Virus record (IMG/VR): IMGVR_UViG_3300042922_000313
Span: 3,079-67,078 of that record
Length of the DNA: 64,000 bases
Origin: a virus
Strand: one strand, 5' to 3'
The position numbers and the translations under genes are program-made. Below are positions 29,761 to 61,590 of this stretch, one piece after another (positions within the stretch are counted from its first letter, which is position 1; each line of letters starts with the position of its first letter). Below the pieces are notes generated by a model that did not search any database, was not told the origin of the DNA, and saw only the letters and a list, made by a program, of their open reading frames with translations.

Positions 29761-30166
29761 AATTAAATAATTAGAATGTATTTCTTAAAGCTGTAATTGC
29801 TAACATAGGATTACAGCTTTACATATTTACATTGTAACTATTAACAATTAAAATATCAAGGAGGTAACAAATAATGAAATATAATAGACACTACTTTTTG
29901 AAAACAAAGTGTATCACGGTATATAGGTATAGTCCAAAACTAGCAAAATAGGAGGTATCCACCATGAAATCATGGGATTATTCAAACGCAACTAAAACAA
30001 AAGTAGCAATCAAAGAAAACAACGAGATCATACAAGAGCATTCAAACGTAAGAAAGATATAAGAATCACAAGAGGTAATTATTTTACATCAAGGAGATAA
30101 ACAAACAGTAATAAAGAAGTAACTTATAAATCTAACATTTGGTTATATAATTTGGGGGTGTAGAAC

Positions 30167-30382
30167 ATGAAAAAAGTAACAAAAAAAGAATTAGTAAATG
30201 ACATCTTGACTGTATTAAAATGGAATGATGAAAATAATAATGAATATGGAAAGAAAATAAATATAGCTTTAGGTAATGTTACTTGGTATATGTCTTATAC
30301 ATTAATGGAAAGAGTTTTAATGCGACAAACAATAGAGGACTTAAAAATTATAAGGAATCAAATAGTAGAAGCAATATATTAA
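30167..30382 (+). CDS. Hypothetical protein
   Basis: 71 aa, GGGGGTG SD, flanked by junction sites 30126 and 30386. Confidence 0.6.
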   Translation: MKKVTKKELVNDILTVLKWNDENNNEYGKKINIALGNVTWYMSYTLMERVLMRQTIEDLKIIRNQIVEAIY

Positions 30383-30482
30383 ACAATAAAATTAAGATTT
30401 GATAGGCAGTTTTAACAGGGATATGAAGTCCGAATCTTCACTGTCTACTACGGTAATAAAACCAATATGAGGAGGTCAAGCA

Positions 30483-31226
30483 ATGGCAAGTATAGATTTT
30501 ATAACTAAACGCATCCAAGGCAAGCAAAAAGAAATTGACAAACTAAACAAGAAGCTTGAGAGAATCCAAAAAGCAAAACAATCCAATTGGACAGTTAACC
30601 CTTATTACTATGATGAATATGAATTAAGTAAAACAGAAAGAGAGTTGACTTATGCTATAAAGCAGCTTAATGAATTACAATCTGATTTGCAAAAGGCAAA
30701 CGAAAAGGCAAATAGCCGTAATGTATTAGCAATAACTCAATTTTTAGATGCATGGTTGCAAAGGAATATTGAATTTTATACGGAAGAAAAGAAAAGATAT
30801 AATATAGCATTACAAGATTATTATCAGAACGATAGAGATTACTGCAATTGGTATAATTCACAACGACATAATACTACAATAGAAGAAAGAAAAGCAGTAG
30901 AAAAAACTCATAAAGAATATAGAGTCAGTTTTACTAAATCATGGAGACATGTTACACAATTTGACCACGGCTCAAAAGAATGGCACGAAACAATGCAGAA
31001 CGATTTAAAAGAAGAATATAACCGCAAATATGATTATATCATAGAAAAAACCAATGAAATAGTCGGAACTATTACCGATGCAAGTTATTTGTCAGTAGAT
31101 GCAAACGGAAACTTGAACGGCTATATTATAGGAGATAGAGGAAAAGCAAACGTTAATACAATTGGTGCAGGCGGTTATAACATACAATGTTATCATTTCA
31201 GAACTTTAATTCATGAAATGAAATAA
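30483..31226 (+). CDS. Conserved phage coiled-coil protein
   Basis: GAGGAGG SD; C-terminal TIGAGGYNIQCYHFR motif that I recall from other phage early proteins. Confidence 0.7.
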   Translation: MASIDFITKRIQGKQKEIDKLNKKLERIQKAKQSNWTVNPYYYDEYELSKTERELTYAIKQLNELQSDLQKANEKANSRNVLAITQFLDAWLQRNIEFYTEEKKRYNIALQDYYQNDRDYCNWYNSQRHNTTIEERKAVEKTHKEYRVSFTKSWRHVTQFDHGSKEWHETMQNDLKEEYNRKYDYIIEKTNEIVGTITDASYLSVDANGNLNGYIIGDRGKANVNTIGAGGYNIQCYHFRTLIHEMK

Positions 31227-31228
31227 TA

Positions 31229-31294
31229 GCAGAGGATAGCGGATCAACTTCCGCTATAATGCGACTAGTCAAAGCGTTCCAAGTCCGCATAGAC
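31229..31294 (+). ncRNA. Circularly permuted twister ribozyme
   Basis: GCA-GAG-GA / P1 UAGCGGA:UCCGCUA / UAA-UGC-G-ACU / GCG-U-UC-C-A-AGU-CCGC; both pseudoknots (UC:GA, ACU:AGU) are complementary. Confidence 0.65.
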
Positions 31295-31555
31295 AAAGAA
31301 ATAAAACTAATAGAAACAAGGTTAAATGGTGGAGGTATTGAGAATGAGAAAGTGTAAATTTGGATATTGCACAGTCAATTGTAAATCACCTAAACGGTGT
31401 GCCGATTTTAAAGTAAGTATTGGTTGTAGTTTAGCTATAACAGAAGAAGAATATCAAAAAAGAATATCTGGAAGCAATATAGTTAGTGTAAATTTTAATA
31501 ATAAATAATAGCAGATCAAATCCTTGATTGATGCAAGGTAGAAAGAATGTAAATA

Positions 31556-31762
31556 ATGAGTAACAAGAATAAAGTAAATGTTGATATGTGGTACGGAGAC
31601 AATCAAAAAGAAGCTGATAGAATAGACGTTCTTTTTTATCCAAACGGTTGCGAATACAGAGGGAATATATATAAAGATGGAAAAACAATTGGAGATTATT
31701 CTTGTAAAGATTCTGTATTATTAGAAAAGGCATTTCCACAATTAACCTTTAATTGGGGGTAA
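31556..31762 (+). CDS. Hypothetical protein
   Basis: 68 aa between junction sites 31515 and 31770. Confidence 0.6.
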   Translation: MSNKNKVNVDMWYGDNQKEADRIDVLFYPNGCEYRGNIYKDGKTIGDYSCKDSVLLEKAFPQLTFNWG

Positions 31763-31797
31763 ATAACAAATTAATCAATTATTTGATAGGAGGATAT

Positions 31798-32193
31798 ATG
31801 ACATTTTCAAATATCTACACTGATTTATATGACAATAAATTAGAATTAACACAAAATGAATTGAACTACTTTTATAATACAGTAAATCATATAAAAGAAA
31901 AATTAAACATTGATATTGAAATAGTAAATCGTAATCATGAGACTTTAAAGGGAAAAGAAAAAGAAGCTTATGGAATTTGCTATAAATCATTACATGATAA
32001 TAACGATCTTTTTATTACAATAGATAATTTCTTTATCCACGAATGTTATGAAGAAAAATTCAATAATAAATACAATTTATCTTTTGAATCATTAGAACAT
32101 TGTATATGTCATGAGATAGCGCACATTCAGGAATGGCGACACGGTAAGAAACACACAGAACTAACAGAAATATTATATAATAAGGTAATATAA
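31798..32193 (+). CDS. HExxH zinc metallopeptidase (SprT-like)
   Basis: HEIAH....HGKKH; ATG at 31798 after AGGAGG. Confidence 0.65.
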   Translation: MTFSNIYTDLYDNKLELTQNELNYFYNTVNHIKEKLNIDIEIVNRNHETLKGKEKEAYGICYKSLHDNNDLFITIDNFFIHECYEEKFNNKYNLSFESLEHCICHEIAHIQEWRHGKKHTELTEILYNKVI

Positions 32194-32236
32194 AAAGTGC
32201 ATTTTATGATAGTTTAATGTCGAAAATATTTTAATG

Positions 32237-32282
32237 TAATATATATAAAACCGTTGACATTAACACATACTAGTATTATAAT
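32237..32282 (+). promoter_or_regulatory. Consensus sigma-A promoter with TAATATATATAAAAC box
   Basis: TTGACA 32254-59, 17 bp, TATAAT 32277-82; box 32237-32251. Confidence 0.85.
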
Positions 32283-33251: not shown

Positions 33252-36200
33252 ATGAAAACTGCTATTTCACCACCGATACATAAAACACTTCTAAATAAGC
33301 CAATAACACACGCAGAGCAGTATTATAAAACAGACTTTGACCGCATGACTAAACAGATTTATTATGACGGAGAATACTGCCAGCTATATTTTAAGAATGG
33401 AATTATAACCAACGTTAAAAACATGAAAGAGAGGTAATCAATGAACAATCTTAGACGGACTTACCCTGAATATTGGGAGGCAGCAAAAGAAATTTGTAGA
33501 GCAAAGCACGAAAGAATGATTTTTAATTCAGTAACAGAATTAAAAGATTATGTAAAACAGAATAAACATTATATACCAGATGTGGTTTCAAGTGGTGTAT
33601 GTATGGGATATGCAATAAAGTTGTAATTTGATGTTAGTTTCAATTAAAAAAATAATAAAACAATAACAGGAGGTAATAAATTATGAACACAATTGAAAAC
33701 ATTACACTTACAGAGGAACAGATTGAAAGCAAAGCAAACATATTAATGAAACAGTATATAATAGCAGCCAACAAGAAGAGAAATGAACAGAACGAAATTG
33801 GTATCAGAAAATGTTCATGTGCCGCTAATTCACTTTACAAAGTGTCATATGAAACAGAGTTAAACGGATCTTATTTACGAGAAAGCATTTTGTTTAGAAT
33901 GGCTAATGCTGATACAGATTATTATTTATTAGAAAACATTAAAAAATTATTAAAAAGATATTTTGATATGCATCCAACGAAATTAAAATGTATGGAAATT
34001 AAAAGAAAAGAATTTATTGCAAACTTTCTATTATAGGAGATATTAAATATAAAACGCTATTATTTAAATGGAGGAATTGTGATTAAAAATAAAGATGTTA
34101 TCATATTATCAGAAATAATAAGAACTAATATACATGAAATAAATAAGATATGTAATAGTAGTAATTCAGATGATTTGTTAATAGGTTTTTTATCGAGAAA
34201 ATATATAGAACGTATTAAACAAATAGAAAGGTAAAGGTAAAACTATATGAAACATAATTGTAAAACTTGCAAAGAAAGATGTGATTATAGGGGTAAGATA
34301 ATTGATGGTTTTTCAATAATATGCGAAGAGGAATGCGTAAAGTTAATATCAGAAGAAGCAAAAGAAATATGTAATGATAGTGATTTTATTCAATTACTTG
34401 ATACATTAAGGAAAAGTAACTTTACTTCAAGACCAGCAAGAATATTATTAAATAGATTAGAAGAGATGATTGTTATAGGTAATTCAACACCATTGTTCAA
34501 ATAGGAGGAATTAAATGTCATTAGAAAAAGCTTTAAGAAAAAGATATGCAACTTCATTACTAAAGAATACGTATACCAATACAATCAAGCGTAATCCATT
34601 CTATGACGATACATATTCAATTCTATATGAGTTTGAAGATGGAAGAAAAGAAGAACGCAAGCTAGTAGAATTTTCAGAAATAGAATTGTTAGAAATAAGA
34701 TATATGATTGATAAACTATTAAACAAGGAGAATTAACAATATGAAAATAGACAGTAAACATTTAATTCTTTATACAGTACATCATCCAGAAACATTTGAT
34801 ATTTCATTTCGTCATAGTAGATTTGTAGAAAATGAGTTTAGAAGAACACGAGCGTGGATAACTATTAGCTTTATGTATTATAGTTTTTCAATTGGATATA
34901 AAAAATATTTCTAGGAGGTAATAAAAATGGAATATATTAAGAAAAAAGTACTCGGAACAAAAACAACACATTGTTTAAAATCAGAAGCATCTCAACATTG
35001 TATTGAAGGGAAGTTTTGGAAGAACGTAACATTAAATATATATGTAAGAAAACCAAACAGTTACACATTAAGTGTAAGATATGATAATTCTATTGATGAT
35101 TATAGTATATGCCAAATATATATGAACAATGATGATATAAAACAATTGAGAGATGTATTAAACAATATACTTGAAAGTATATAATCACATAAAAGAATGT
35201 TTCGATGAAATAAATCAGGAGGTACACCAGATGCAATAAATAATCATTCAATTAGACTATGAAACAATCAAAAAGTGTAACAACTAACAATATCAATCGT
35301 AACATATAATAAACAATAAAAAGGAGAATAACACAATGACACAGAACAATAGCAATAGATCAAACGAGATTCAATTTGCACAGGTACTAAAAGCCACAGA
35401 CAAAGAAGTAAGAATGATGTACCTCACAGGTTCAAACAAATTTGCATCAAGATTAATGAAATTAGTTAAATGATAATAATTAAATCAGAAAGGAGCATAC
35501 ATATGCTTGAAATAGTATATCATGTAGACGGTCATTACTTCAAAGAATCAAACGGAACAAGAGAAGAGATTACGGTAGATCAATGGTTATCATATTTCAA
35601 CGAATGATATATTAAACTAAAATGCTTCAAGTGAAACATATATAAAACTGACTACTATTATAGTGGATATTAAAGCAAGTCCGAATCTTGCTAGTAGTCA
35701 TTCCGGCAATAAGCCAATTTAAAACTAAATAAGGAGGATTTTACACTAATGAACATACTAACAGAAGAACAGAAAGAACAGAACAAGAAAGAGGCTAGAT
35801 CACATTTAATTGATATTATCTTAGAGAAAATAATGGAGGATAAACAAAATGCAAGGTACAGTACACAAGTTTGAAACTAGAAATAATACATACTACTTAG
35901 GATATGGTAGAACAGCAAAAACAACATATGAACAACAGCAAGAACAGAGAGAAGAAAAAAGATACATGATAATTCAGAAGTCAATAGGAATTCTAGTTAT
36001 GTTATTTAGTGTTATATTATCAATCACATTCAACGATCCAGAGGTAAGAGGCGCATTACTATTAATATTGTTCCCTATTGGATTATTGCTAACAGCCACT
36101 AAACAACACACTTTATGCTTATAAGGAGGTTTAAATATGATAGAATATATTACACATAGAGACTATATTGAACTAAAAATAAACGGTAAAACAGAAGGAA

Positions 36201-36321: not shown

Positions 36322-36629
36322 GATAGCAACAGAACATATTGAACAAAATATGGAAATGTGGTAGAATTAAATAATGATTGATTGGAGGGCTGAGATGGAA
36401 TACAAAGAATTTATATCACAAGGTAATGATTGTTTAATTTACAGAACAGTAAGCATTTTACCAATAGGAAATAAGTTTGCGGTCATAACTTTAACTCGAT
36501 TGTCAGGAGCATGGATTAACAACAATAATCTTGGCACTGATACAGTAAATTTTGATACAGAGAAAGAAGCAACAGAGTATTATGATAGCATCGAATATTG
36601 ATTTTATAAGAAGAAGGTGAGGATAAGTT

Positions 36630-36875
36630 ATGTTTGGTCAATTGAGTAATTTTAAATGTCCGTGTTGTAACCATACTGAGGTTATTAGATTAGGTAGAAC
36701 ACAGTTTGTAAATATTAAAGATAAAGGTGAGCATTTAGCATTAACAAACTGTCCTAAGTGCAATAAATTGATTGCTTTTGAAATGGTTGATAGAAAATCA
36801 GAACCATCATTTAGCTTTGATGTAAGAAGTATTAACGAAGATGAAATTGAAAACGCAGGAGTTATATGTTACTGA
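36630..36875 (+). CDS. Zn-ribbon protein
   Basis: CPCC...CPKC; flanked by junction sites 36590 and 36875. Confidence 0.6.
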   Translation: MFGQLSNFKCPCCNHTEVIRLGRTQFVNIKDKGEHLALTNCPKCNKLIAFEMVDRKSEPSFSFDVRSINEDEIENAGVICY

Positions 36876-37798
36876 TAAAATGATTATTTTATGTATAGAA
36901 AGGATAGGCATTTAAGTATGGATATTGAGAAATATAAAAACGATTTAGAATATCACAGAAACAAATTGAATGAAGCATTTCAGAATTCAGATTTTGAACA
37001 AATAGCAGCTCAAGCTAACCAAATTAAAGAGTTGGCTTATATGATAAGTTACTGTAATAAAAAAGATAAGTAACCATCGATATGAAATGGATTGTAACAT
37101 TGAAAAGTTAAAAACAATTGAAATGATATGTGATATTTTAAAAGGAAGAATATTAAGCTGAATAAAGTTTTCCACACCATCGCCAGAGTAATAACATAAC
37201 ATTGTTATAGGTTCTAGGATGCAAAATCAGACGATGGATTGAAGTAAGTAATCAATTAACAATTAATAGCCTAGAAAGGCAAATAAGGAGGTGTGAGAGT
37301 GAACGAAGAGTTATTAAAGATATATCGGTTAGTAGTTGAAAGAATTAATATGATAACTAAAACTGATACATATACAGAAATTGATGAATATAGAAAACAG
37401 GGTGCTTTATCCGAATTAGAGGAGTTAAAAGAATTACTAGATACAATGATATAAGTATTCAAAGCAAAGAGTAGATTGATGCTAAAATGAAAGGAGTTTT
37501 TATTATGACAAAGGAAATAAAAGTAGCTCAATATGATCAAATAGGGTATGTAGAGAATGATTACAAATATATCTTAAAGTGTAACAAATATGATAACGAT
37601 TTGGTTATTGGTCAAAGGACAGTTAGCGGAACAGAAATACTGCTTTCCATAAGACACGATAGGGTATCAGATGAAACAATTGATACTATTTGTGCAAGAT
37701 TTGGATTTAAAATAAGTAAAGTATATTAAACTATAACATCAATCAATTCATTTATGTTATATAAACAAAATATAAAACAAATAGAAAGGAATTAAACT

Positions 37799-38050: not shown

Positions 38051-39438
38051 AAAATAATCAAATAATATTTGATTTAGAAAGGAGAAAAATGACTGTAATA
38101 GAAAATTATAAAGGTGTGAATATTGCTTCAGCAATTGTTTGTTATAATATAAGGTATTTTGTTATGAATAAACTTTTTACACATTTTGATACAATCGAAG
38201 AAGCTAGAGAAGACATAGATAATACAATACATATGGGTATTGCTTATGATTGGATAGCGAAGAATAAAGAGTATATAAAACATATTGATTTTAGTAGAGA
38301 TGATTTAATTCAAATAGGAATAAACATTAGTAGCATGAACAAATAACTTAAAATACTTAATTGATGCATTGAAAATAAAACAATAAAGAAAGTAGGTATA
38401 ATAAATGTTAAAGATTAAAAATAAGAAAGTAGATATAAAGAATGATAATGGTGATGTTGTTGTAACAGATGGCAAAACAGAATATTACAGGGCTAATAAG
38501 TCAACACAGACTATAAGTATTGCAAATAGTATTTATTGGTCAGTCAAATATGAAGAGGTGATATGAATTGACTGAAGAAATTTGTATGGAATGTAAGCAC
38601 TGTGAGATATTAGAATATGGATATAACGGAAGATTAGGAGCAACGATTTTAATATGTAACATACTCGAAGAGGACAATGAAAATAAAGAAGAGTGTTTTG
38701 AACAAAGTACATAAAATCGGAATTTGAAGCAATAGAAAGGATGAGAAATTATGAAACTAATTAAAGGTATTTTAGTATGGTTTGGAATGATATTTATGGC
38801 AGTAACAGCTCCAATATGGTGGTTGTTAAAATATGATATGATAGTTGAAATCGATAGAAAAGGAAGACACTTTTAACATCAAACAGTCATTCGATTACAT
38901 GAAAGAAGGTATAAAATAATAGGTATTTTATTAATTCCACTATTCTTTTTAGTCTTATGGATTGTAGACATATGTCAGGCTAAACAGAGGGAAAAGGATT
39001 ATGAAGCATATCAAGAAGAAAAACGAAGAAAGGGATTGATTTAGATGAGTTATATAAAACTATCAGAGATTAAAAAGTATGAGAAATTTCAGTTAGCTAA
39101 CATTGCCGGATATAATGTAACAGAAGATAAAGAAACAGGAAGATGCTACATCGTAGGAGCAGATAATTGTATCAATAATGATTTTAGTAACATTGACGAA
39201 GTATTAAAACTGATAGCTAGTGACTTGAAGCGTAAAGGCTTTGTCGTAGCTGCGTAGGAGGCTCATATGCAAGCAATTTTGTTAGTTATAGTAATAGTTG
39301 CACTAGTAGTTACTTTAATGGATTATAAGCCATTAAGCAAGCGTATAGAAGAGGCAGATAACAATCCAAACAATAGTATTAAGAGCGATAAGTGGAAGCG
39401 AGAGCATGGAATTATAAAGTGAAAGGAGTGTAGACAAT

Positions 39439-40404
39439 ATGGGATATGCATTAGCATCTAATAATCAAAGTTATAGTAAATCAAATAAGAGAAACGTAAA
39501 AGTTAAAAGAGAAGGTAACGTGTATACTATTTCAGATAAAAAACAAAGTGGCAAACAAAAAGGTGATAAGGCATACCCATTAAAAACACTAGAAGAAATA
39601 GCTGCCGTAATAGAGTATTATGAAAACAAAGCTAATAACGCAAGATACAAACAATCAGCGGATAGAAATAAACTTTTACTAATAGTAGGATTCAATATAG
39701 GTATAAGAGCGTCTGATATAACAGAACTCAGATGGAGTAACGTGTACAATTCAAAAGGAGAATTTCTTTTACCTGATGAAGAAGAAGCGAGTACTGGCAG
39801 AACTTCAATAATAACAGAAAAGAAAACTGGAGATATAAAGAATTTAATATTCAATGATACCGTTAAGGCTGCTTTTACAGAATATGTTTCTAAATATAAT
39901 ATTGATATTTATACCGACGATTATATATTTAAAAGTAGACAAGTGAAAAAAGACGGAACATATAACATAACAGTCGATACATGTTCAGATATTATTAAAG
40001 AAGCTGGCGAAGCCTGTGGAATCAATAGAAATTTTGCAAGTCACACATTAAGAAAAACATTTTGTTGGTTTCAAATGGAAGCACATCAAGACGATGCTAG
40101 ATTCACAAGTGAGCTAATGGACATTTTAAATCACGATAATGAAGAGACTACATTGAAATATGTTGGTTTGGATTTAGAAAGAAAAATTAAATATCATAAT
40201 GATGTACAGCTTGGTAAAACTTCTACTCTTAGAAAACATGAAAAAGTTGAACTAGGAAATAGTAATTTAGTTATTGATAAAACAGATCTAGAATACTTAT
40301 TGAAACAATTGGCAGAGAAATGTTATACTTGTAATAATGAATGTGGAACGTGTTATAATTCTATGATAGCAAAGAAATATGGATATGATCTAAATACAAT
40401 TTAA
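39439..40404 (+). CDS. Tyrosine recombinase/integrase with intact catalytic residues
   Basis: GIRASD (R), EKKT (K), HTLRK (HxxR), LNH (H), TLKY (Y); C-terminal CxxCxxxCxxC extension. Confidence 0.9.
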   Translation: MGYALASNNQSYSKSNKRNVKVKREGNVYTISDKKQSGKQKGDKAYPLKTLEEIAAVIEYYENKANNARYKQSADRNKLLLIVGFNIGIRASDITELRWSNVYNSKGEFLLPDEEEASTGRTSIITEKKTGDIKNLIFNDTVKAAFTEYVSKYNIDIYTDDYIFKSRQVKKDGTYNITVDTCSDIIKEAGEACGINRNFASHTLRKTFCWFQMEAHQDDARFTSELMDILNHDNEETTLKYVGLDLERKIKYHNDVQLGKTSTLRKHEKVELGNSNLVIDKTDLEYLLKQLAEKCYTCNNECGTCYNSMIAKKYGYDLNTI

Positions 40405-40634: not shown

Positions 40635-40746
40635 TTTAAGGTACTATAGAAGAGAGATTTTATATAGTAACATATCAAATGTTATTATGAAAAAATTATG
40701 TTACAATAAAAAACTATATTTATTAGATTATAAGGAGGATTAGGTT

Positions 40747-42836
40747 ATGAAGAAGTCTTGCATTTTAACTGAAGAAAATAAAAATGGAGCACAAATATTT
40801 TGGTTTGAACATCCAGATACAGAAGATCGTGATTTTAATAGAAATTATGTAAAAGTATTTTTTAATGAAAGTGATGAGCAACCATTTTTAAGATGTCATG
40901 TGTCAAATGTTATTGAAGTTCCTGAAACAGAGATCAAAAATAGATGGGGAAGTTTATATGCCTCTGATGAGTATTTTAAATCAGTAAGTGATAAATGGAA
41001 AACCGTTTAAAAAAGCAATTTTACGTGATTGGAGGATAATTAATATGAGTTTTTGTAATATCGAGAAAGCACAAATAATCATGAAAGAAGTTAATAAGCT
41101 AGACCTAGATCTTACAGAGGAAGAAGTATTCAAGCTAAAAATCGCTATTAATGATGGATTTGATCAGGTTGATAAGAAACAGAGAGAATATGACAGAATG
41201 TGGAATGAAGAATAACAACAAACTTAAATTTGATACGATGGAGATGATTTATTTTAATAGTAAAAGTAAATATTGTTTTATATGATGAAAGGAATTAATT
41301 TAATGATAAATTTTATAAATAAATTAATAAAAAGAAAATTAATCAAAAAGGATAAAATTCCATATGATGCAATGTCAAAAGGAATAACTAATACAGGTAA
41401 ATGTCGTGAATATTCAGTAAAGAAAAAATAATTGGTTGTTATACGTGATGTAATTTAAAAATTAAATTAATATAGCAGAAAGGAGGAGCTTTATGAATAG
41501 TAGATATATTATAAATGCAGATACAAAGAAAGTTGAAAAGTGGCTGTTTGAAAAAGAAGAAGGCAATAGAACTTTATTATCTAAAGGCAAAAGTCTGTTA
41601 TGGGTTGAAAGCAATTGTGTCTTTAATGAAAAAGATAAAGCCGACAATGTTGCTAAATCACTAAATTGATAATAAAATGAGAATTTGAAAGGGATATGGA
41701 ATATGGATAATAAATTTATTTGTCCGAAATGTGGTGGGAATATTAGATACTGGCAAGAGTATTCATTTACAAAAACCAAAAATATTAATCCGAAAACAGG
41801 TAAACCAGTTAAAACTGTAAGGACTAGTAAGCCAGAAATATCAGATGGTTTAAGAGGTTTTGAGTGTTGTAAGTGTGATTGGTCTGAACATGAGTGTTTG
41901 GGTGATATACCAAATGAACTGGATGGTTGGAGATCTGAACACTATGAAAATATAAAAGAGTTAACATGAAACATGAATTCGATGCTATATAGAAAGGAAT
42001 GGTAATGAAAGAAGTAGATAATTGGGAAGTCCTTAGAAAAGGAAATAGAGTAAGACTATATACTGATAATGCAAAAGTAATCTATAAAGATGGAACAGTA
42101 TTACAGGGTGCTTATGCTTCTGGTGTAACATGGGTGATATTTGATGGTGAAAGCAGAGGAACATCAGTAGATGCGTGTGATTTAATAAAGCTTATAAAAT
42201 AAACGTTTTAAGAGATAATGAAAGGAGTTGGTTATTTGAATATTAAATGTATTAAAAATTCTAATGGTAATGGAAATTTCACGATGGGAAACGAATATAA
42301 AATTGAGAAAAACAAGGATAAATATTTTGGCGATTATATTGTTACCTGTGATTTTATTCATGTTTTTGCAGATAGAGATACGTTAGATAATGTATTAGAC
42401 AAACAAAAAGGTGATCTATTTGATTTTGCTTGTTGTAAGTTTGAAGTGATATAACATGAATGAATCAATTGATGTTAAAAGAAAGGAGAAAGATATGGGA
42501 GAACTTAATGTAAAAGAAGGAGATAAGGTTTATTATGAATATGGATATTCATATAATAGAAGAGAAGAAATAACCACTGTTACAAAAGTAACACCGACTG
42601 GTAGAATAAAGGTAGAATGTAGTGATTCCCAATTTGATAAGTATGGAAGAGAAATGGGTAAACATGATAGGTGGTCGAGTAGTGCTTCAATATCAGAAGC
42701 AACCGATGAAATTATTCAAAAGGTAACGGAAAGCAATACAATCAAAGAATGTCTATCAGCTATAGGCAAACTAAACGATAAGACACTTGATTATAGCAAG
42801 GCAAAAAGTATATTAGATATTTTAAATAGCAAATAA
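40747..42836 (+). CDS. Run of small hypothetical genes, most bounded by junction sites (includes Zn-ribbon protein 41703-41969)
   Basis: ORFs 40747-41010, 41045-41215, 41703-41969, 41999-42202, 42218-42454, 42495-42836 with SDs. Confidence 0.6.
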
Positions 42837-42845
42837 AATGTATAT

Positions 42846-43721: not shown

Positions 43722-44027
43722 TTTAATCAAATAACTATTCGATGATAGTGAAAAGCACTCATGGATATACTAAAACAATATTAAACTATAAATTAAGGAG
43801 TATCACCTATGGGTTGGAAAAATCTAATTGCTTCACACTATCAGATTAATAACATAAGTACTTTTAGCATCAAAGTATACAGAGGTAGTGAATATGATGA
43901 AGTAGTAACTAAGATTTCACCATTCGAGTATCAAATAGACACATATTTTAAAGGAACTGATATACTAACAGATAGCCATATAGAGTCTAATATTAAAGAA
44001 TATATTAAACTATAGGAGGTAGTTAGT

Positions 44028-48993: not shown

Positions 48994-48999
48994 TATTTT

Positions 49000-49616: not shown

Positions 49617-49873
49617 CTGTATATCAGATAAAGAGAGGAGAGGTGAACGGTGGTGAATACAAGTTGAATACAGAGGAATTAGGAAACGGTGATGAAAGAA
49701 TGCTCAGAGCATTTATCAGGCATAACGAAAAACTTATTAAGAAGCTAAAAGAAGACGACGGAGATATAAAACTGATCAATAAATATAGAGAAAACATCAA
49801 AATACATGAAAAACAGCTCGAAGAACTGAAGAAATGATACATAGAACAGAAGTCGCAATTGATGTTATTATTA

Positions 49874-50663: not shown

Positions 50664-51224
50664 ATGAAGGTTATATTTCTTGATATCGATGGAGTTTTAA
50701 ATGGATATAACAAATGGACGTATAGCGCAATAAACATTTCTAAAGCACTACATATTCCTGTAGGATTTATGAGAAATACGTTGAAAATATTTGAAGTAAA
50801 AGAACGATATGTTAAGCGGCTTAGTAAAATTGTTAAAAACACAGGGGCAAAAATAGTTATGTCGAGTTCTTGGAGGCATGGGTATTGGTATACTCCGTAT
50901 GAAGAAAAGTATTATGATCAGAAGAGATTACATGATTTACTAGACAAATATCATTTAGATGTAATTGATATTACACCAAGTAGTGACAATGGTAAACGTG
51001 AAAATGAAATAAATCAGTGGCTTAATCAAACCAATTTAATAGTAGACAGATTTGTTGTGCTCGATGATGAATCATATGATTTACAGTCTTTCGTAGATAA
51101 AGAATTAGTTAAAACTAGCAAGGTAATTGAAGGTAATATGATTCAAGGTTTAGCCTACGAAGATACTGGATTAAAAAGAAAACATGTTAAACAAGCGATA
51201 AAAATATTAAACAATAGAAATTAG
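50664..51224 (+). CDS. HAD phosphatase (Swiss-Army-knife RNA-repair HAD_SAK-like)
   Basis: IFLDIDGVLN, IVMSSSWR, RENEI..WL, FVVLDDE. Confidence 0.8.
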   Translation: MKVIFLDIDGVLNGYNKWTYSAINISKALHIPVGFMRNTLKIFEVKERYVKRLSKIVKNTGAKIVMSSSWRHGYWYTPYEEKYYDQKRLHDLLDKYHLDVIDITPSSDNGKRENEINQWLNQTNLIVDRFVVLDDESYDLQSFVDKELVKTSKVIEGNMIQGLAYEDTGLKRKHVKQAIKILNNRN

Positions 51225-51250
51225 ACTGATAGCGAGATTAAGAAAGGAGA

Positions 51251-51843: not shown

Positions 51844-52225
51844 TATTAACAAAATAAATATAAAACAAAGAAAGGAATATAATTATGTGGCGTTGTGCAA
51901 AATGTGGAGCCACTTATGAGAATGTAGTAGAAGTAAAGAACGAGAGAGATAACGAAGAGAAGCAAGAATCATGTGATATATATATTTTCAATGACCATAC
52001 TGATAAAACATTTGAATTATTTGAGCAGATGTTTGAGGAAGGAGGAAATGTATGATTCAGACTGATTTTGGATTATGGTATCAATTAGCACAAGTGGTAT
52101 GCTGGGGAGTTATTGGATCAGGTGCTATAGTAGCTATATCTGATGCAATTAAGAAAAGAAAGAATAGTAAGTAATACATAATGTTAGACCAAATAGTGTT
52201 TCTATCTCAAAAATAAAGGAGAACA

Positions 52226-54630
52226 ATGTTAAAGGAAAACAATAAAACGTTTAAACAAATTGACAATTACATTAGGAAACACACTCCTACAGTGTTTTCA
52301 AGAGGTTGTGGTAAATCTGGAATGGTATTAAACATGATACAGATAAATTATGGTTTGGAGTTATATAAGGATGTTGTTAGAGATGCAACAGAGTATATGT
52401 CGTTTGAGCAAGTGCTAAAAAATGTTGTTGATGCAATATATCAAGTATATAAGGAGAGTGAAGAAGATGAGGAATGATAAAAAGTATTTGGCAATTACAT
52501 ATGCGTGTGTATGGTTGTTTATGCTTAATCTAGTATGGATGGGTCTAGAGTTGTTACCATACGGAGAAGTACAACATAGGATAGTAGATGATATTATTGC
52601 AATACCAATTCTATATTCATTTTATCTAAATGGATTGTATTACATAGAAAGAAAATACGGTGAATAATCACTTAGAATTTGGATTCCATTAGAAAGGAGA
52701 AAAGGAAATTAAAATGGAGAAGCAATTATCAAATGAAATTAAAGTACTAATGTTGCTAAGCAATGGCTCAATTGGACTTAGAAAGATACATAAAGAAGCT
52801 ACATTTCCGCAAATAGTTGAACACTTAAAAGATTATCGCTCTGTCAGGAACAATATAGTACCAAAAGAAGTAGAATTGGAAACGTGGAACGGACATAAAG
52901 GCTGGAGTTGCCCTAGCTGCGGTCAGTGGTGTTATGAGGAACACAACTATAATTATTGCGGTCGATGCGGTCAGAAGTTTCTACATGAAGAAAAATAATA
53001 TAGAATGTCCGATTGTTGTGATGTTCAGAAAGAGAGGTGTAGAGTGAGGCTAATTGATGCTGACGCTATGTTAAAAAGAAATGAACATAGTATATATGAT
53101 ACAACTGACTTGAAAGAAATGCTTGATTATGAGCCTACAGTCTATGATGTAGATAAGGTTGTTGAGCAGATAAAAGAAAATGTAAAAGAAAAATGTGCAT
53201 GTGGTCTTAAATGTAAAGGATGTATTATAGAGTCAAATTGTGGGATTATAGAAACTATATCTATTGTAAAAGGAGCTATCAAGGATGAATAAACAAGAGA
53301 TTGAAAAAGACCTAGAAATATTAAAGTATTATGAATCAGAACCTTATTTCTTTTCAAAAGATATGACAGCACTACATGCATTCAGAAGAGCAATATCGGC
53401 ATATGAGCAGCAATTACATAACGGATGGATACCAGTATATGAACAATTACCCATTATACCACAAGAAAAGACTGACGAAGGATTTAATAGAGTAGCTGTA
53501 TTAGTTACATCAAAACACGAAGATATGACGGTTATTGAATGGTATGATCCAGAAGAGGGTGTCTTTTATGATGATTGGGATTTGTTGGCTAGTAAAGATG
53601 AATATGTAACAGCGTGGATGCCGTTACCGAAGCAATATACAACCAAATGAAAGATTTATTGGACGAAAGGAGATATTATGAAAATTGCTTATATATTGTG
53701 TAACAACAGTTCATTATTTGATGGGGCTGGACGTTATGATTTGGTACTAGAAGATAGAACTGTAATTGCACATCATGGATGTTCTAATCGGAGCTTTGCT
53801 AATCATGACTTAACGGTTTGGAAATTGAAAGAACTAAAAGAAAATGAAGTTAATATAGTAATGAGTGGCGATAAAGTTGTATGGTCAAAAGATGGTGACA
53901 ATTTAGAAACAATGAGAGAATTTTATATAGCTAATAACAATTACGAATCTAAACATTGTTACGGATTTTCAGAGAATTGGAATTTAAGATTACGATAAGG
54001 AGAATGTAACATGAAAACAACACTAATAGAATGGGAAGAATTTAAATATAGTAATCCAATAATCAACTTTGGATGGTATCTAGTTGTGCTAAAGCCTAAG
54101 AATTGGAAAGAATGTGAAGACGGTGAATTGGACTATGCGGATTGGGTTTCTAGTTATGGATTTGAAAAGGCTTGGTATAACAATTCAAGGTTTTATGTAG
54201 CAAATCATCATGGATATGGAACAGAAGAAGTGACTGAGAGAGTTGGATTGTTCGCAAAATTACCGAAAGTATCACTATAAAGATAATTATGTATGAAGAA
54301 CAATAACAACAAAGGTACATTCTATTGCAAAGTTAGGAGGTGGAATATATGAATCAGTATTTAGATGATATTTTTGACGCCATATACGATGAAAATAAAG
54401 ATGAATATGGAGAAATGTATTCAAGTGTTTATAAATATGAATGCCGTAATATGTGTAATACACTTGACGATATGATAAGAATTTTAATGACTTATTTTAC
54501 TATTAATGAATCTGATGTTGCTAAGTTAATTGTATTGTCAGAACAAAGGCACATTGGAAATGATTTAGAAATTGATTATAACAAACTTGAAAAAGTATCC
54601 GAAAATATACTTCTTAGTATTTTGTGTTAG
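52226..54630 (+). CDS. Run of small hypothetical genes (includes Zn-ribbon 52714-52998 and DUF551-like 53285-53650)
   Basis: CPSCG..YCGRCGQ; GWIPVYEQLP...VTAWMPLP; SDs present. Confidence 0.6.
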
Positions 54631-54959: not shown

Positions 54960-55276
54960 ATTGCAATCACCACCCGTATTTTAATATTTAATTATATTAT
55001 GAAATGGTTGAATATATGATTGCAAAAACTAATAAATCTGCAATTCGATTAGAAAGAAAAGAAAGGAGTATTAAATAATGGATGATCAAGTATTAAAATA
55101 TTTCAAGTTATGCAACCAAAGATATAGATTAGATAATGCAATCAATTATTTATCGCATTCGAATAAGAAAGATGGTTTTGAGTATGAAGTACTGGATTAT
55201 GCCAAAGATGAAATTGCTAAAGTAAATATGAGAATTAATGGAATGAAAAGAAAACTTGGCATTAGATAATATATAT

Positions 55277-56056: not shown

Positions 56057-56103
56057 TCACAAAGAAGACTGAATTGGTTTGATAATTTGAAAGGAGAAGT
56101 AGT

Positions 56104-58665
56104 ATGGATGATATAATAGAAAGACACAGAGAAGAGTATTTTGATTGGTTGCGGTTAAGTTATGAATTAAGTCATAGTTTTGATACTTTGAGTGGAACAC
56201 ATTACATCTATCACTCACAAACTATTAATAATAAGTGTGTCAGTTTTGAGATTTTTGAAGACAAATATATATCTGGAACAAAATATAGTTTGTGTATAAT
56301 CAACAATGGATCAGCAGGAAACTTAATTGCCATACAAATAGCAGACGACTCAGAAGAAGGTGTAGATAATTTATTTAAACAGTTAGAGAGTTATGAAAAC
56401 ATAGTTAAGCAATAAAGATCGTGTATTTCACGTTAAAAAAGGAGAGTTATGGACGAATATAAAATTGAGTTTTATAAGAATGATGAAGAAATAGACATTT
56501 CAGAATTACCTGATGAATACTTAAATGGAATTATTCTATTGTGTCAAAGCGAAATTGCAAACAGAGAAAGATTAGAAAGAGTTTTTAAAAGAATGTTTAA
56601 CTAAATAATAACATCAATCTGGAATTTGGTATGAAAAAATATAAAGAAAGGAATATAAAAACAATGGGAATGTATACTCAGGTAAGAGGTTGGCTAAACA
56701 TAGACAGCATAGGAGATTATGAAGGTAAGAATTTTGAAGAGATCGAAAGAAAGTTGTTATCTGCACAAGAAGGATTTCAAAGAGATACTACTATTAAATC
56801 GGATAGGAGATGGGTATGTTATGATACATATGCACACAGAGGCGGTAACGGTAGCGTATATATTTTCTTTGGTACTGAATTAAAGAATTATGATAGCGAC
56901 GCTGAACAGTGGATTAAATATTTATTAAACTTCTTTCCGAATGCAGAAGGTAGAATCGATTTTCAGTATGAAGAAGATGAATATCACTATTATTATTGGT
57001 TGATAGCAAAAGGTAAAATAGTAAAAGAAGACACAGAAGAGATTTATTGTGAAGGATATGGAAACATGTATAAATAACCACATCAATTGTGATATTGGTG
57101 TGAAAAAAGAAAAGGAGATAGTATGGAAAATTTTGATGAAAAGTTAGTTGATTTAATACAGAAGAAAATTATTACAGATATTTCAAAACAGGAATTAGTT
57201 TCTGTGGCATATGGTGACAGAATTCCATTACCTAGCACTTTAATTAAAGAAGTGTATCAGTCATTAGATTTAGAAAAGATTAAATTAAGACTAAAAGAAA
57301 ATCTTGAAAATGAAATGGCTGATAAAATTGCAAATAAGTTGCTTACTGAATACTCGAATGATATTAAACAGATTATGAGTAACCGTGAGTTAAGAGAAGA
57401 TTTACGCCATTATGCTAGAGAAAAAATAAGAGCAATCGCAGAATCGGTTAGTGGATAAATACTTTAAATCAATTCATTAAAGTGTAAAGGAGGAATTATG
57501 GATAATAACAAAATATTACAAACAGAAAATATAAATAGTTTCTTTGTTATTGTAGCAGATAGAGATGGTGTTAGAAAGTATATTAGTAGAACTTTCCCAA
57601 GAGTGTTTCAATATACAATAAAATTAAATCAAGTACAAAGATTTAATACTGAAGAACAAGCTAATAAATTCATCAAAGGATTTAATGATTATGGCAAATA
57701 TGTAATTGAAAATCCAAAAATAAGGAAAGTTTATAAACAATTAAGATTATTATAGAAACAATATAAAACTAAGTATTGATAGTAAAATTTGAAAGGAGAG
57801 AATATGAGAAATTTTAGTGAAGAGAATATTAATAATATGGTTATTAAACCACACAATATTGTATTCGCATGGACAAGTGAACCTGATTATGAAATGAATA
57901 GAATAATGGTATTAAACAATATTGAAGGACTTGACAAGTGGGATGAATACTTAGTTTTAGAAGGTGGACACTGTAGTTGTTATGATTTTGATGAAACATC
58001 GTGGTGTGGTACTGTTTATACAAAACAAGAATTATTAGCAATAGCCAATGCTGAGTACAATAAGAATAACACATTTTGGGATATGGTGAGTAGTTATTTA
58101 TAAAATCAAATACGAATTCTAACGTATAAAGTATAAAGCAATAAAGGAGAATGAAAGAAATGAAGAAGAAAGTAATTACAGCAATATTAACAGTAGTATT
58201 AATGATTTCATTAACAGGATGTACAGAGAAAACAATGGCTAAGAATTTTGGTGGAGATATGACAATTGATTTACCAGCTAATCAGAAGTTAGAAATGATC
58301 ACATGGAAAGACGATGATTCACTTTGGTACTTAACTAAGCCAATGACAGAAGAAAATGTAGCTGAGACACATACGTTCCAACAAGACAGTTCATGGGGTA
58401 TTTTTGAAGGTACTGTAACTATTGTTGAGAGTAAGACAGAATAGGAGATTATACAATGAATAAAAAGTTATTTGGATATTCAATTGGAAATGAATTAGCC
58501 GTAGGAATTTGTAAGGCAGAAACAGTAAAAGAAGTAACTAACCATTTATATGATACATACCCATTAAAAAGAGATTTTATATTTGTCAAAGAGATTACAG
58601 ATGAAGAATTGGATGAATATGATTTAGTGGAAATTCATACAGAAGACGAAGATGAATTATTTTAA
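56104..58665 (+). CDS. Run of hypothetical genes bounded by junction sites (includes lipoprotein 58151-58444)
   Basis: ORFs 56104, 56449, 56664, 57123, 57498, 57804, 58160, 58456; LTGC lipobox in 58151-58444. Confidence 0.6.
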
Positions 58666-58716
58666 CAAATAAATGTAACATTTGATATTATTAAATCAAA
58701 ATAATTGAGGTGAAGA

Positions 58717-59265
58717 ATGGAAGATAGGGTATATCGACAAGGAAGAATAGTATTTTTATCAGGTGTAATAACACAAGAATCTGCCGGAGAAGTTATCAAT
58801 CACCTTCTCAATTTAATTCAATATGATGATCAAGAAGACGAAAAACAGAAAGAATACAAGAGAGAAGATATTAAACTATTTATTAAGTCTAATGGTGGAA
58901 CCGTGACTGATATGTTTGGGATGATTGATTTAATAGAAAGTAGTAAAACACCAATTAATACATATGCAATAGGTAACATAGCTAGTGCCGCTGTTCCATT
59001 ATTTATTAGTGGAAAGAAAAGATATATCTATAAAAACACAGAAGTCATGATACATACATGCTCCGGTGGAACTAGAGGAAAAATTCAAGATATGATTGAA
59101 ACTATTAAGAATGTAGAAGATACACAAGTAATGATTGATAATTATATTTTGTCAAAGACAAAGATTGCCAAAGAAAGATTAGTTGAAGTGAGAGAAAAGA
59201 AACTTGATTGGTATTTATATGCCGATGAAGCGGTTAAATTAGGAATTGCGGATGAGATTTTATAG
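58717..59265 (+). CDS. clpP: ClpP-family protease subunit
   Basis: RIVFLSG.I, IKSNGG.V, IASAA (Ser), VMIH (His), DWYLYADEAVKLGIADEI. Confidence 0.85.
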   Translation: MEDRVYRQGRIVFLSGVITQESAGEVINHLLNLIQYDDQEDEKQKEYKREDIKLFIKSNGGTVTDMFGMIDLIESSKTPINTYAIGNIASAAVPLFISGKKRYIYKNTEVMIHTCSGGTRGKIQDMIETIKNVEDTQVMIDNYILSKTKIAKERLVEVREKKLDWYLYADEAVKLGIADEIL

Positions 59266-59299
59266 AAGAGGTATTTTATTAGATGAAAGGAGAAAATAG

Positions 59300-61263
59300 A
59301 TGAAAGTAAATATTGAAATGAATAATCTTGAATTATTAATTCAAGAAGCTATGAGCAAAAATATTGAAACGGTTATTAAAGACGAAGTTAATAAAACAAT
59401 AAATAAAACTATTGAAAAGGAAACAAAAGGTGTAGTAGATGAAATCGTGCAAATGAAAATGAATGAGTTTGTAAAGGAATACATAGAAAAAGCAGTTATT
59501 ACAGTTGGTGGAGGATTTTACTCTAAAGAAGAAGCTCAGACATATACAGTTGAACAATACATAAGAAAAGAGTTAGCTGACGTTCTTTCATCAAAATCAT
59601 TAAAAGTCAAGAAGAACGACAGATACAATGATAGTTATGAAAGCATTTCATTTGAAGAATTTATTAAGAGATCATTTAATCCTGAAGAAATTGTAAGGAA
59701 GGAACTAACTAAATTCATAGATGATACAAAGAAAGAAATTAATCAAAAAATTAATGATACATTTACAAGTGTAACTAAAAATATGCTTTCCGAGACAGTG
59801 TTTAATGTACTTATGAAAAACGATACCTTTGTGCAGCTTAATAATAGTATTAAATGTATTACCGATAAGAAGGAATAACCTATGGAAGAAATCATTCAAG
59901 ATTGGGAAAGTTGCGAATACATACATACCACATATTATGAATATGATACGGGATATTCTGAATATGGATGTTGCCTGACTGGGTTTGGATGCTTAGGAGA
60001 TAAGTATTGTCCATTGTGTTTCAAGTATAAAAAAGATGAATAGAATAGAGGGTTTATGTTATTTTTTGAAAGGAGAAATTAGATGAAAGTTTATGTAGTA
60101 ACAACAGGAAGCTATTCTGACTATGGAATTGATAAAGTTTTTACAAACAAAGAGAAAGCAGAAGAATACGCAGAATGGTTGGAAGATTCAAACGATGTAG
60201 AAGAATATGAAACTGATGATAATGTTAGTTTTGAAAAGTTACACAACGTTCATGTTCAAATGAAGGTTTATGATAATGGAAAAGAGGATTTGAGTTATAG
60301 AGTTTATAAAACAAAAGATAAATGCAATAGTTATACTTATTTATCAGATTATCATAAATACGGAGGAGATTATATTGACATTACTCTAAGTCGTTATGTA
60401 ACTAATGAAAATTTTAATGAAGAATTCTACAGAAATAAATATACTAAAGCCATTTATGATGTACTAGCAATCATTAGAAGTAAACTAGCCGATGGATATA
60501 ATGAGAAGGAAATTAATGAATTGCTAAATAATATAGAATCAATGTGATATTTGGTGGTTAAAGTGAACAATATTAAACAATGAAAAGGAGAAAAAATGGC
60601 ATTATTATTAACTGTAGTATTTTTATTTTTTGTTATCGTGGGTTTTACAAGAGATTGGGATGAAGATGGTTGCGGTATTCTTGTAGTAGGATTTCTAATT
60701 GGATTAGTTATAACTTCAATTTTTGGAGGATTAGTTATTAACGGAAGAACAATTCAAGCTAAAATTGAAATGTATCAAGAAGAAAATACCAACATTGAAG
60801 AAAGTATGGATTTATTAGTACAAAAGTATATGAATTATGAATCTGATACATATGGTGATTTGAAGGGTGAAAGTAGTATTACACTAGTATCTCTTTATCC
60901 TGAGTTAAAAGCAGATACGTTAGTAGAGCAACAATTAGTTATTTACGTTGAAAATAACAATAAGATTAAAAGCCTAAAAGAAAAACAAATTAATATCAGT
61001 AATTATAGATGGTGGCTTTATTTTGGAAAATAACATCAATCAGGTGTTTGATGTTCTTTAGGAAGGAGATGGCAATGGATATCAGAGAAGCTCTACAAAG
61101 AATTAAACAAGATTTTGACGAGAACATTGGAGAAGAAGGTTATAAAGAAGAATTTAGCGATGTACTAGAAGCAGAATCTATATTAATACAATTTGTCAGC
61201 GCAGTATTAAAAGAACCATGTGATTTAAAATATAACTGGGAACACAGAACTGGAATAAATTAA
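59300..61263 (+). CDS. Hypothetical genes 59300-59878, 60083-60547, 60596-61033 (membrane), 61075-61263
   Basis: AAGGAG SDs; junction sites at 59262, 60040, 60538, 61035. Confidence 0.6.
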
Positions 61264-61287
61264 AATTAAAAGGAGAAAGAGGATTAT

Positions 61288-61536
61288 ATGAACTTAAATG
61301 AAACAGTAGAAATGATGAATAGTGTAGATTACAAGGAAAGATTTAGAGCAGAGTATTTACAATTAAAGATTAGAATGAGTGGATTAAGTGCAATGTTGAA
61401 GAAATACAAAGAAGGAACTTTGCCATTTATTCCGTCATGTAGTTATGATTTGTTAAATGCTCAGTTTAGAGCTATGGACTTATATGCTTCATTTCTTGAG
61501 GACAGAGCAGCGGTTGAGGATATTGATCTAAATTAA
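61288..61536 (+). CDS. crAss001_48-like small helical protein
   Basis: MNS.DYKERFRAEY.QLKIR...L..Q..AM..Y...LE.RA pattern. Confidence 0.55.
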   Translation: MNLNETVEMMNSVDYKERFRAEYLQLKIRMSGLSAMLKKYKEGTLPFIPSCSYDLLNAQFRAMDLYASFLEDRAAVEDIDLN

Positions 61537-61590
61537 CAACCAAACAAGTCTTTGATGTTATATATTAAACTATAAGAGAGGTAAAATGAA

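Follow-up and report, generated by a model that had tools for sequence, protein, structure and literature searches.

The present report deals with an 18-bp dyad that recurs at gene ends along the early arm of a phage whose sequence makes it SPbeta-like, and compares it with the closest systems of dispersed junction elements described so far. The dyad was analysed in the window, i.e., the whole stretch of 64,000 nucleotides that runs from base 3079 to base 67078 in a virus record 67,078 bp long, with a G+C content of 29.8%. Among the known systems, integron attC sites are imperfect inverted repeats of 57-141 nt in which the folded single strand, and not the sequence, is conserved; they depend on an IntI integrase with a specific extra domain, adjacent to attI and to a cassette promoter from which promoterless cassettes in one orientation are read, and the cassettes are excised as circles. 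The pdif sites of Acinetobacter plasmids are 28-bp sites for XerC/D, and core sites of the lox/FRT/dif type have two inverted arms of 11-13 bp around a spacer of 6-8 bp, which partner sites have in common. The KorB operators of RK2 and the Noc-binding sites of Bacillus subtilis are fully specified, dispersed palindromes of 13-16 bp with readers of the ParB fold, and stoperators are asymmetric 13-bp sequences read by a monomer, oriented with transcription and different between immunity groups. As described in the available parts of two reports on Cluster A phages (PMC9283540, PMC6550527), dozens of these intergenic repressor sites halt elongation and silence the prophage. The Cluster O mycobacteriophages (Corndog group) carry more than 30 copies of a 17-bp dyad per genome, mostly between open reading frames (ORFs) or at ORF ends and in all members of the cluster, and the accessible portions of the report leave their function and binder unknown (PMC4351075). 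The PeSL elements of T4-type phages combine a strong early promoter with a terminator stem-loop, as set out in PMC2839356 (see also PMC4122927). In SPbeta itself, the available part of PMC10516654 describes a protein, MrpR, which binds the element SPBRE at about ten promoter regions and has lost its recombinase function.

The first-pass annotation of the window knew of no description of such a system. Comparable ones do occur in the literature, namely the PeSL cassettes (PMC2839356), the stoperators and the Cluster O repeats (PMC4351075), as far as the accessible parts of these sources describe them. Like the Cluster O repeats, the dyad is present in at least 30 copies with short inverted arms and a free centre, at or near ORF ends and throughout a clade; unlike them, with their invariant 7-bp arms and 3-bp centre, it has degenerate 6-bp arms around a 6-bp centre, and it is kept across phages with very few genes in common. 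Like the stoperators, it has numerous copies that occupy short intergenic regions along transcription units, but it is palindromic, shows a mild left/right bias only and is the same in divergent relatives. As for the PeSL cassettes, repeated regulatory motifs stand between small non-essential genes in hyperplastic regions where genes are gained, lost and replaced. The dyad, however, has no stem-loop and, at most sites, no promoter, for which there is no room since the next start codon follows at a median of 24 nt past the site (133 pooled oriented sites from 13 sequences); a single terminator-like site was found over 20 kb, from 29 to 49 kb. SPBRE belongs to the same phage group and is likewise a repeated intergenic element, bound by a recombinase-fold protein. 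It occurs in about ten copies, in promoter regions or just before the Shine-Dalgarno (SD) sequence, whereas the dyad sits at gene ends, and by context the counterpart of SPBRE in the window is the ATATATAAAAC box, not the dyad. Similarly to attC and pdif arrays, the early arm consists of single-gene units in one orientation, each closing with a recombination-type site, but the dyad is 18 bp long and conserved as a sequence, and the hallmarks of attC or pdif were not found. Tens of scattered palindromes also recall the ParB-family sites, and the phage encodes a YopQ-like protein with a ParB/Srx-like domain; the dyad, though, is degenerate, and one motif-bearing relative, G004, has no YopQ match. 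The integron reading of the first-pass annotation does not stand. The array belongs most naturally among phage operators and palindromes dispersed over gene junctions, as a degenerate, clade-wide variant tied to stop codons.

We consider that there is about an even chance that the dyads are dispersed, operator- or roadblock-like docking sites for a paired DNA-binding protein regulating the early arm. The consensus drawn from the site alignment, (A)AC-ATMAAA-N6-TTTKAT-G(TT), is built on a core A-T-(A/C)-A-A-(A/T)-N6-(A/T)-T-T-(G/T)-A-T, flanked symmetrically but more weakly by AAC to the left and GTT to the right. The strong arms measure 6 bp, weak conservation reaches positions -4 and +23, and the centre comprises 4-6 bp; the arms are not invariant, position 3 being A or C and position 16 G or T. 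Sites were scored with a 24-nt matrix derived from them and made symmetric, local maxima being counted and 30 Markov shuffles serving as control. On this basis the early arm, with its approximately 85 small plus-strand ORFs preceded by strong SD sequences, holds 36 sites scoring at least 11 for 1.43 expected (shuffle maximum 3), and 28 scoring at least 13 for 0.4 expected, besides about 12 weaker ones. The pattern AYMRAW-N6-WTYKRT occurs 33 times in the whole window, compared with 7.5 in 100 dinucleotide shuffles (largest 18).

The first-pass annotation had listed 45 motif positions, and the printed letters are present at all 45. The pattern by which it described them, ATNRA-N8-TYNAT, fits 21 of the 42 listed N8 sites and is weakly enriched only (56 matches for 32.6 expected, largest shuffle 51); the enrichment over shuffled sequence becomes strong once the symmetric matrix is used. 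According to this matrix, 33 of the 42 N8 sites score at least 11 and 36 at least 9, the six weak ones being those at 40646, 41007, 52188, 53647, 57464 and 60040, and the junction listed at 53647 finds a better register 5 nt leftward, at 53642. The array and its sites, which are assigned to no strand, are as follows, with matrix scores.

30126..61556, plus strand: early arm with the junction-dyad array
30126..30143: dyad, 12.6; 23 nt ahead of the next start
30386..30403: dyad, 14.9; 3 nt past a stop
31515..31532: dyad, 16.2; 6 nt past a stop
31770..31787: dyad, 13.0; 10 nt ahead of the next start
32190..32207: dyad, 13.5; stop codon at motif positions 2-4, strong promoter downstream at 32254
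33615..33632: dyad, 12.0; overlaps a gene end
35189..35206: dyad, 14.1; 4 nt past a stop
36590..36607: dyad, 15.6; 17-nt run identical to G006 13293, flanking genes unrelated
36875..36892: dyad, 14.6; same spacer as G006 13693, also the next junction in G006
37463..37480: dyad, 14.2
37738..37755: dyad, 17.8
38057..38073: dyad variant one base shorter (N7 class), near-perfect palindrome
38348..38365: dyad, 13.7
38711..38728: dyad, 11.8; stop within the left arm
38878..38895: dyad, 17.8
40646..40663: weak dyad, 8.6
41007..41024: weak dyad, 6.7
41217..41234: dyad, 14.0
41672..41689: dyad, 12.3
41966..41983: dyad, 16.1; TGA stop within the left arm
42194..42211: dyad, 13.0
42456..42473: dyad, 16.0
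42833..42850: dyad, 16.8
43726..43743: dyad, 16.6
46007..46023: dyad variant one base shorter (N7 class), at the end of ORF 45394-46014
49846..49863: dyad, 14.1; spacer GTCGCA identical in L034 (4348), same letters in L033 (4265)
51214..51230: dyad variant one base shorter (N7 class); similarity to G007 stops just before it
52188..52205: dyad, weak by matrix (5.1), matches the degenerate pattern
52672..52689: dyad, 10.4
53000..53017: dyad, 13.6; 26 of 32 nt identical to L043 2848, flanking ORFs unrelated
53642..53659: dyad, 13.9; a block 90% identical to G007 begins at 53665
54308..54325: dyad, 11.4
55032..55049: dyad, 14.7
56061..56078: dyad, 12.5
56613..56630: dyad, 17.3
57082..57099: dyad, 17.9
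57464..57481: weak dyad, 3.2
57763..57780: dyad, 9.1
58105..58122: dyad, 11.0
58669..58686: dyad, 14.8
59262..59279: dyad, 10.7; TAG stop within the left arm
60040..60057: weak dyad, 5.4
60538..60555: dyad, 15.0
61035..61052: dyad, 21.4; top score of the early arm
61539..61556: dyad, 18.7

The dyads are closely tied to the ends of genes. Among the 41 early sites scoring at least 9, 33 start between -12 and +8 nt from the last base of the upstream stop codon, and the early-arm organisation agrees, as a description, with the proposed units of site, SD, ORF and stop. Only two of the 36 strong sites lie fully within a called gene, though 81% of the arm is coding. Of the 36 junctions at which the genes are 24-80 nt apart, 21 hold a dyad (30 when the weaker listed sites are counted), compared with one of 20 junctions with narrower gaps and 10 of 23 with wider ones. 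The mazF-yopQ-mrpR block was correctly described as free of sites, the best score in 46020-49220 being 6.8. In the pooled set, an ORF terminates at -12 to +23 nt relative to the site start in 106 of the 133 cases, with peaks of the offset at -4 (26 sites) and +1 (15 sites), and the stop codon coincides with motif positions 2-4 in 26 of these 106. In G003 and G004 the right arm of the dyad abuts the SD. About eight of the dyads of the early arm come after a stop without a nearby downstream gene. A further motif, AATATTAAAYTATAAG, possibly a promoter-like element, was seen 3' of several dyads and before the SD (61557-61585, 60556-60580 and 49864-49900 in the window, 4862-4885 in L043, and others), and also occurs in G005. 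Contrary to the initial view, the motif is not confined to the early arm, for the left arm holds six dyads scoring at least 11, compared with 1.7 expected.

The same element was recovered from related phages. The relatives, in which dyads were counted at a score of at least 12, are uncultured contigs found through YonO or MrpR, and SPbeta is listed beside them; the window phage is G000 in these comparisons.

L043 (9.5 kb): 15 dyads for 0.2 expected
G006 (complete, with terminal repeats): 27 dyads for 4.5 expected
G007: 22 dyads for 4.8 expected
G005: 16 dyads for 5.2 expected
G004: 12 dyads for 4.8 expected
G002: 5 dyads for 3.0 expected
SPbeta: 7 dyads for 2.8 expected, counted as no dyad enrichment

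The context of stop, dyad and SD in the related contigs is the same as in the window, and the motif is the property of a clade, not of a single phage. L043 has 16 sites in its 9.5 kb, with a window homologue for only five of its 24 ORFs, and the locus of phage D-1873 has four sites scoring at least 11 in 44.6 kb, as a raw count. Little else is common to these genomes. ORF profiling of G000 against its relatives yielded few shared proteins, namely the MazF-like, YopQ-like and MrpR-like proteins, the YonO homologue, an 89-aa protein (54011-54280) that belongs to no Pfam family, and the structural genes, and a single block of at least 85% identity was found among the 10 sequences compared. The scan with the YonO homologue gave the related contigs G001-G004; four single-protein scans revealed no close kin of the early arm, a profile search of genome contigs with the MrpR alignment returned no match, and megablast against the phage collection found no match to the window.

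With respect to the form in which the dyad is read, the two arms vary independently. For 76 sites pooled from ten sequences, a covariation test against shuffled partners gave z values between -1.3 and +1.1 for all core pairs, and the 36 window sites display the same independence. Positions 3 and 16, for instance, combine as AG 27 times, CG 18, CT 12 and AT 10 (z -1.1), so the commonest combination, present in 27 of 76 sites, is an A with a G that cannot pair. The idea that the arms form complementary inverted pairs is not borne out, as no compensatory changes occur. Folded as RNA with 6-nt flanks, the sites have a mean minimum free energy of -2.2 kcal/mol, compared with -1.25 for shuffled sequences, the fold being at -1 or weaker in 14 of 36 sites and joining arm to arm in 11 of 36. 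The lack of covariation together with the weak fold indicates that a two-fold symmetric protein reads the dyad as duplex DNA, and not as a folded, attC-like site. A hairpin in RNA or DNA was rejected on the same two grounds, and a promoter or terminator identity was discarded as well: no -10 element fits, promoter-like sites occur at chance level in a scan, and there is only the one terminator-like site. We know of no host-regulator box, nor of any IHF-like or Hin-like half-site, that matches the spacing of the dyad.

An element acting on RNA is nevertheless conceivable, in which the sequence from stop to SD on a polycistronic early mRNA would be a site of processing, stability or translational control for an RNA-binding protein or nuclease of phage or host. 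The position of the dyad is indeed fixed relative to translation signals, with the stop codon at positions 2-4 in 26 of 106 cases, the start a median of 24 nt further on and, in G003 and G004, the right arm abutting the SD; its sense asymmetry is compatible with G:U pairing (T2:G17 15 times, C2:A17 4 times), and the phage encodes MazF-like and beta-CASP proteins. However, the hairpin is weak although reverse-complement symmetry is without meaning outside a duplex, and the pair 3/16 is unable to form a Watson-Crick or G:U pair in 45 of 76 sites. Moreover, about eight sites past a stop are devoid of a nearby downstream gene, and no Rfam family matches at the sites. Such a role is, all in all, improbable.

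In the docking-site reading, one two-fold symmetric, sequence-specific protein would dock on the duplex dyads, each ATMAAA half-site being read independently and the centre left free. With a site at the 3' end of nearly all early genes that are translated independently, the dyads would function as a regulatory punctuation of a long early arm with almost no terminators. We infer that the bound protein blocks or silences transcription by the host polymerase through the lytic accessory genes, in a mode that may be likened to that of dispersed operators or stoperators, and that the site-free mazF-yopQ-mrpR lysogeny operon would stay expressed. As a by-product, the repeated junction sequences would label the places of gene exchange and may promote exchange there. 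The candidate readers are the MrpR-like recombinase-fold protein, the ParB/DndB-like YopQ homologue, or a host factor.

Several observations weigh against this reading. The degeneracy of the arms contrasts with the invariant arms of the Cluster O repeats, and the sites track stop codons more than promoters, which no known function needs. A left/right asymmetry in the sense orientation is not predicted by a purely symmetric DNA reader: position 3 is C in 29 of 62 left arms and in 45 of 62 right arms, the right arm is nearer to TTTGAT/TTTGGT than the left arm is to ATCAAA even when the stop lies upstream, and T2:G17 outnumbers C2:A17 by 15 to 4. In the phyletic profiles of the relatives, no shared protein tracks the motif perfectly. 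L030 encodes a 55%-identical MrpR homologue in 21 kb without enrichment of the dyad (1 for 0.9 expected), SPbeta MrpR reads a different, promoter-linked box of which the window has its own counterpart, and the profile of the YopQ-like protein finds no match in G004, which bears the motif and is 86% complete.

The two phage-encoded candidate binders are adjacent in the lysogeny operon.

46782..48041, plus strand: YopQ-like protein with a predicted ParB/Srx-like (DndB-like, DGxHR) domain, candidate binder
48028..48993, plus strand: MrpR-like protein of recombinase fold, candidate binder, the ATATATAAAAC box being more likely its operator

The latter carries an MrpR N-terminal domain and shares 24% identity with SPbeta MrpR. 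SPBRE, as derived here from the SPbeta sequence, is an AT-rich box located upstream of the -35 or just before the SD, and the window possesses a box of similar placement, TAATATATATAAAAC, with 19 hits at up to two mismatches for 2.9 expected, always oriented with transcription.

29096-29110, 32237-32251, 36272-36286, 49569-49583 and 55637-55651: copies of the TAATATATATAAAAC box, in addition to 14 looser copies

The copies either precede a consensus -35/-10 promoter by 2-5 nt or stand a few nt before the SD. The box is enriched only in G000, G007 (40 for 5.4 expected) and G005 (18 for 6.6), a lineage-specificity which a co-evolving repressor and operator would show and to which the dyad is not restricted. 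From these sequence features, the TAATATATATAAAAC box is likely to be an MrpR-type operator or promoter element. The dyad as MrpR operator is set back accordingly, since the ATATATAAAAC box fills the contexts of SPBRE and the dyad sits at gene ends. With the box as the better candidate for the MrpR operator, the dyad must have a different reader or be bound in a second mode. Three of the six left-arm dyads lie directly 3' of a copy of the ATATATAAAAC box.

12976..12993: left-arm dyad, 15.2; 4 nt past a ATATATAAAAC box on the minus strand
17422..17439: left-arm dyad, 14.2; 1 nt past a ATATATAAAAC box on the minus strand
20916..20933: left-arm dyad, 15.0; 8 nt past a ATATATAAAAC box on the minus strand

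In these three places of the late arm (12976-13012, 17422-17455 and 20916-20956, minus strand), the dyad lies 1-8 nt downstream of the box, where the promoter core would be expected; the order of box, dyad and SD seen there was not observed in the early arm. At the 46007 variant, the right arm overlaps a -35-like TTGATA (46019; 18-nt spacer, TATAAT) upstream of mazF-yopQ-mrpR (46007-46048), and this variant and promoter could together form an autoregulatory operator.

The YopQ-like protein is an attractive candidate binder for the dyad, although the link is a guess. Its predicted structure has a pLDDT of 86, and residues ~120-271 match the N-domains of ParB, Noc and KorB with Z values of 7.0-7.9, which are middling. 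The DG-x-HR motif is invariant in the alignment of YopQ homologues; the family PF14072 is found on two of 35 of these homologues, and on 18-40% of the members in the atlas clusters of the YopQ homologue. Besides G004, the YopQ-like profile finds no match in G003 and G002, and sequence searches of the PDB gave nothing useful for either the YopQ-like protein or the tyrosine recombinase. A host factor would be the simplest account of the binder and is favoured by the constancy of the motif in phages that share hardly any genes.

The relation of the dyads to the exchange of genes leads to a different family of explanations. According to the first of them, the junction repeats would exist mainly as linkers for single-gene swaps by short-homology recombination, protein binding being secondary. 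The motif is indeed kept in relatives while nearly all the intervening genes differ, and homologous genes carry different junction elements. Near-identical junction elements, with runs of 17-18 nt, occur in different genomes between ORFs that are unrelated on both sides; in the nine such pairs tested, no flanking ORF pair gave an E value below 0.26. The consecutive junctions 36590/36875 of the window and 13293/13693 of G006 (window 36590-36892, G006 13293-13710) bracket unrelated genes, and the outer ORFs are also unrelated. Identical spacers link G000 with L043 in three places and with G006 in three, all collinear, and the PeSL elements of T4-type phages, in the accessible part of PMC2839356, offer a precedent. 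The signal of junction retention is, however, small: adjacent identical-spacer matches number 1 for 0.056 expected (P 0.054), and those within three sites 2 for 0.29 expected (P 0.028). Identical spacers are in excess overall (19 for 6.6 expected), part of which may come from spacers with extra half-site-like words, and identical-spacer pairs do not exceed other pairs in the likeness of their flanks (P 0.15-0.20). Furthermore, selection for evolvability alone rarely maintains a half-site pattern with a free centre, and exchange driven by homology would favour identical sequences. Breakpoints are barely mapped because the 10 sequences have no more than a single block with an identity of 85% or above. 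The contigs of three public runs showed no joint from site to site, with the limit that contigs cannot show rare events; contig joints had sides of 21-38 nt, and some of them are, in our reading, short matches of the SD region from other organisms. Junction elements outlast the genes between them, and as a pattern their association with gene turnover is real, but a role chiefly as linkers is unlikely.

The integron-like mechanism of the first-pass annotation, or a lox- or dif-like one, would have a tyrosine recombinase cut the central spacer and move single-gene cassettes. As a description, the cassette array holds in that the junction motif is kept while the genes almost wholly differ, as in L043, and the unit order of site, SD, ORF, stop and site agrees with it; the mechanism is not supported. 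The geometry fits loosely, as a centre of about 6 bp is enclosed by inverted arms whose weak conservation extends to about 11 bp. A few junction elements persist where the surrounding genes have been replaced, and the phage encodes two proteins of the tyrosine-recombinase fold. One of these, located in the middle of the array, had been put forward as the candidate recombinase.

39439..40404, plus strand: tyrosine recombinase, generic Xer-like, not co-conserved with the motif

Its best NCBIfam match is XerA_Arch (NCBI name 'site-specific tyrosine recombinase/integron integrase'), at 38.8 bits for a cut-off of 220; no other integron-integrase family is among the matches listed at E values up to 0.01, and the protein falls far under every family cut-off. 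Of three motif-bearing records searched, a homologue occurs in G007 but not in G005 or in the complete and motif-rich G006. The second protein is the MrpR-like one, whose SPbeta counterpart has lost its recombinase function, as stated in the accessible part of PMC10516654. The sites neither fold nor covary, and hence are not attC-like, and nearly all the 6-nt spacers differ, the commonest 6-mer occurring three times in 133 sites, so that lox-, FRT- or dif-type partners are lacking within a genome. Breakpoints were expected within the spacer; in the one mappable block, 53665-54279, about 90% identical to G007, the edges adjoin the dyad instead. The left edge lies at the SD, 5 nt outside the dyad, whose proximal arm is unshared, and the block ends at a stop codon, where G007 carries a dyad of its own. 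All ORFs of the array are on the plus strand and at least four consensus promoters are located inside it. The integron- or lox-like mechanism is, on balance, very improbable. In a related scheme, which we regard as scarcely probable, a recombinase needing matching 6-nt centres would swap genes solely between the same junctions of co-infecting relatives, the equivalent in nature of recombinase-mediated cassette exchange between heterospecific sites; such address-coding would explain why the centres are near-unique in each genome, why a few of them recur in the same order in relatives, and why unrelated genes lie between them.

The remainder of the window gives the genomic setting of the array. 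The YonO homologue (990 aa, 17625-20597, minus strand) is of the single-chain RNA polymerase type, with 38% identity to the SPbeta RNA polymerase YonO and 66-70% to G001-G004, and the closest cultured phage by this protein is Clostridium phage D-1873, at 40% identity. Two tRNA genes lie just downstream of it (16872-17045, minus strand), and they are the only matches of an Rfam scan of the window. A large terminase and a portal protein were named by PHROGs, and Pfam recognises in the left arm an actin-like segregation protein, an FtsK-like ATPase, a Replic_Relax domain and a beta-CASP nuclease. The region 21532-25940 (minus strand) encodes the ALP_N actin-like segregation protein, the FtsK/SpoIIIE ATPase, the Replic_Relax protein and an HTH_36 protein, and these segregation and replication genes suggest a prophage kept as a plasmid. 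The nuclease at 15172-16488 (minus strand), with beta-CASP and RMMBL domains, is of the RNase J/CPSF type and is 88% identical in G001, and 33-36% in G002, G004 and G007. Genes for HNH or endonuclease VII-like nucleases are dispersed over both arms (11114-12613, minus; 42846-43721, plus; 9908-11095, minus), the product of 11114-12613 resembling SPbeta YomD in its C-terminal part. The stretch is present in three public soil-metagenome runs, and no RNA run is among the public runs listed as containing it.

Palindromes dispersed over gene junctions are met again and again in phage genomes and, beyond the stoperators and a few repressor systems, have no known reader or function. The phages of the clade considered here are SPbeta-like, encode YonO and have hardly any accessory genes in common, and the constancy of the motif throughout this clade leaves as binder either a host factor or one of a few conserved proteins; the literature consulted on SPbeta yielded no function for YopQ. 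The sites also connect regulation with the places where accessory genes are exchanged. If they are only operators, their recognition is a useful annotation and no surprise. If, on the other hand, it is true that a ParB/DndB-like or recombinase-fold protein silences some 30 kb through about 45 sites, this would represent a new layer of prophage control.

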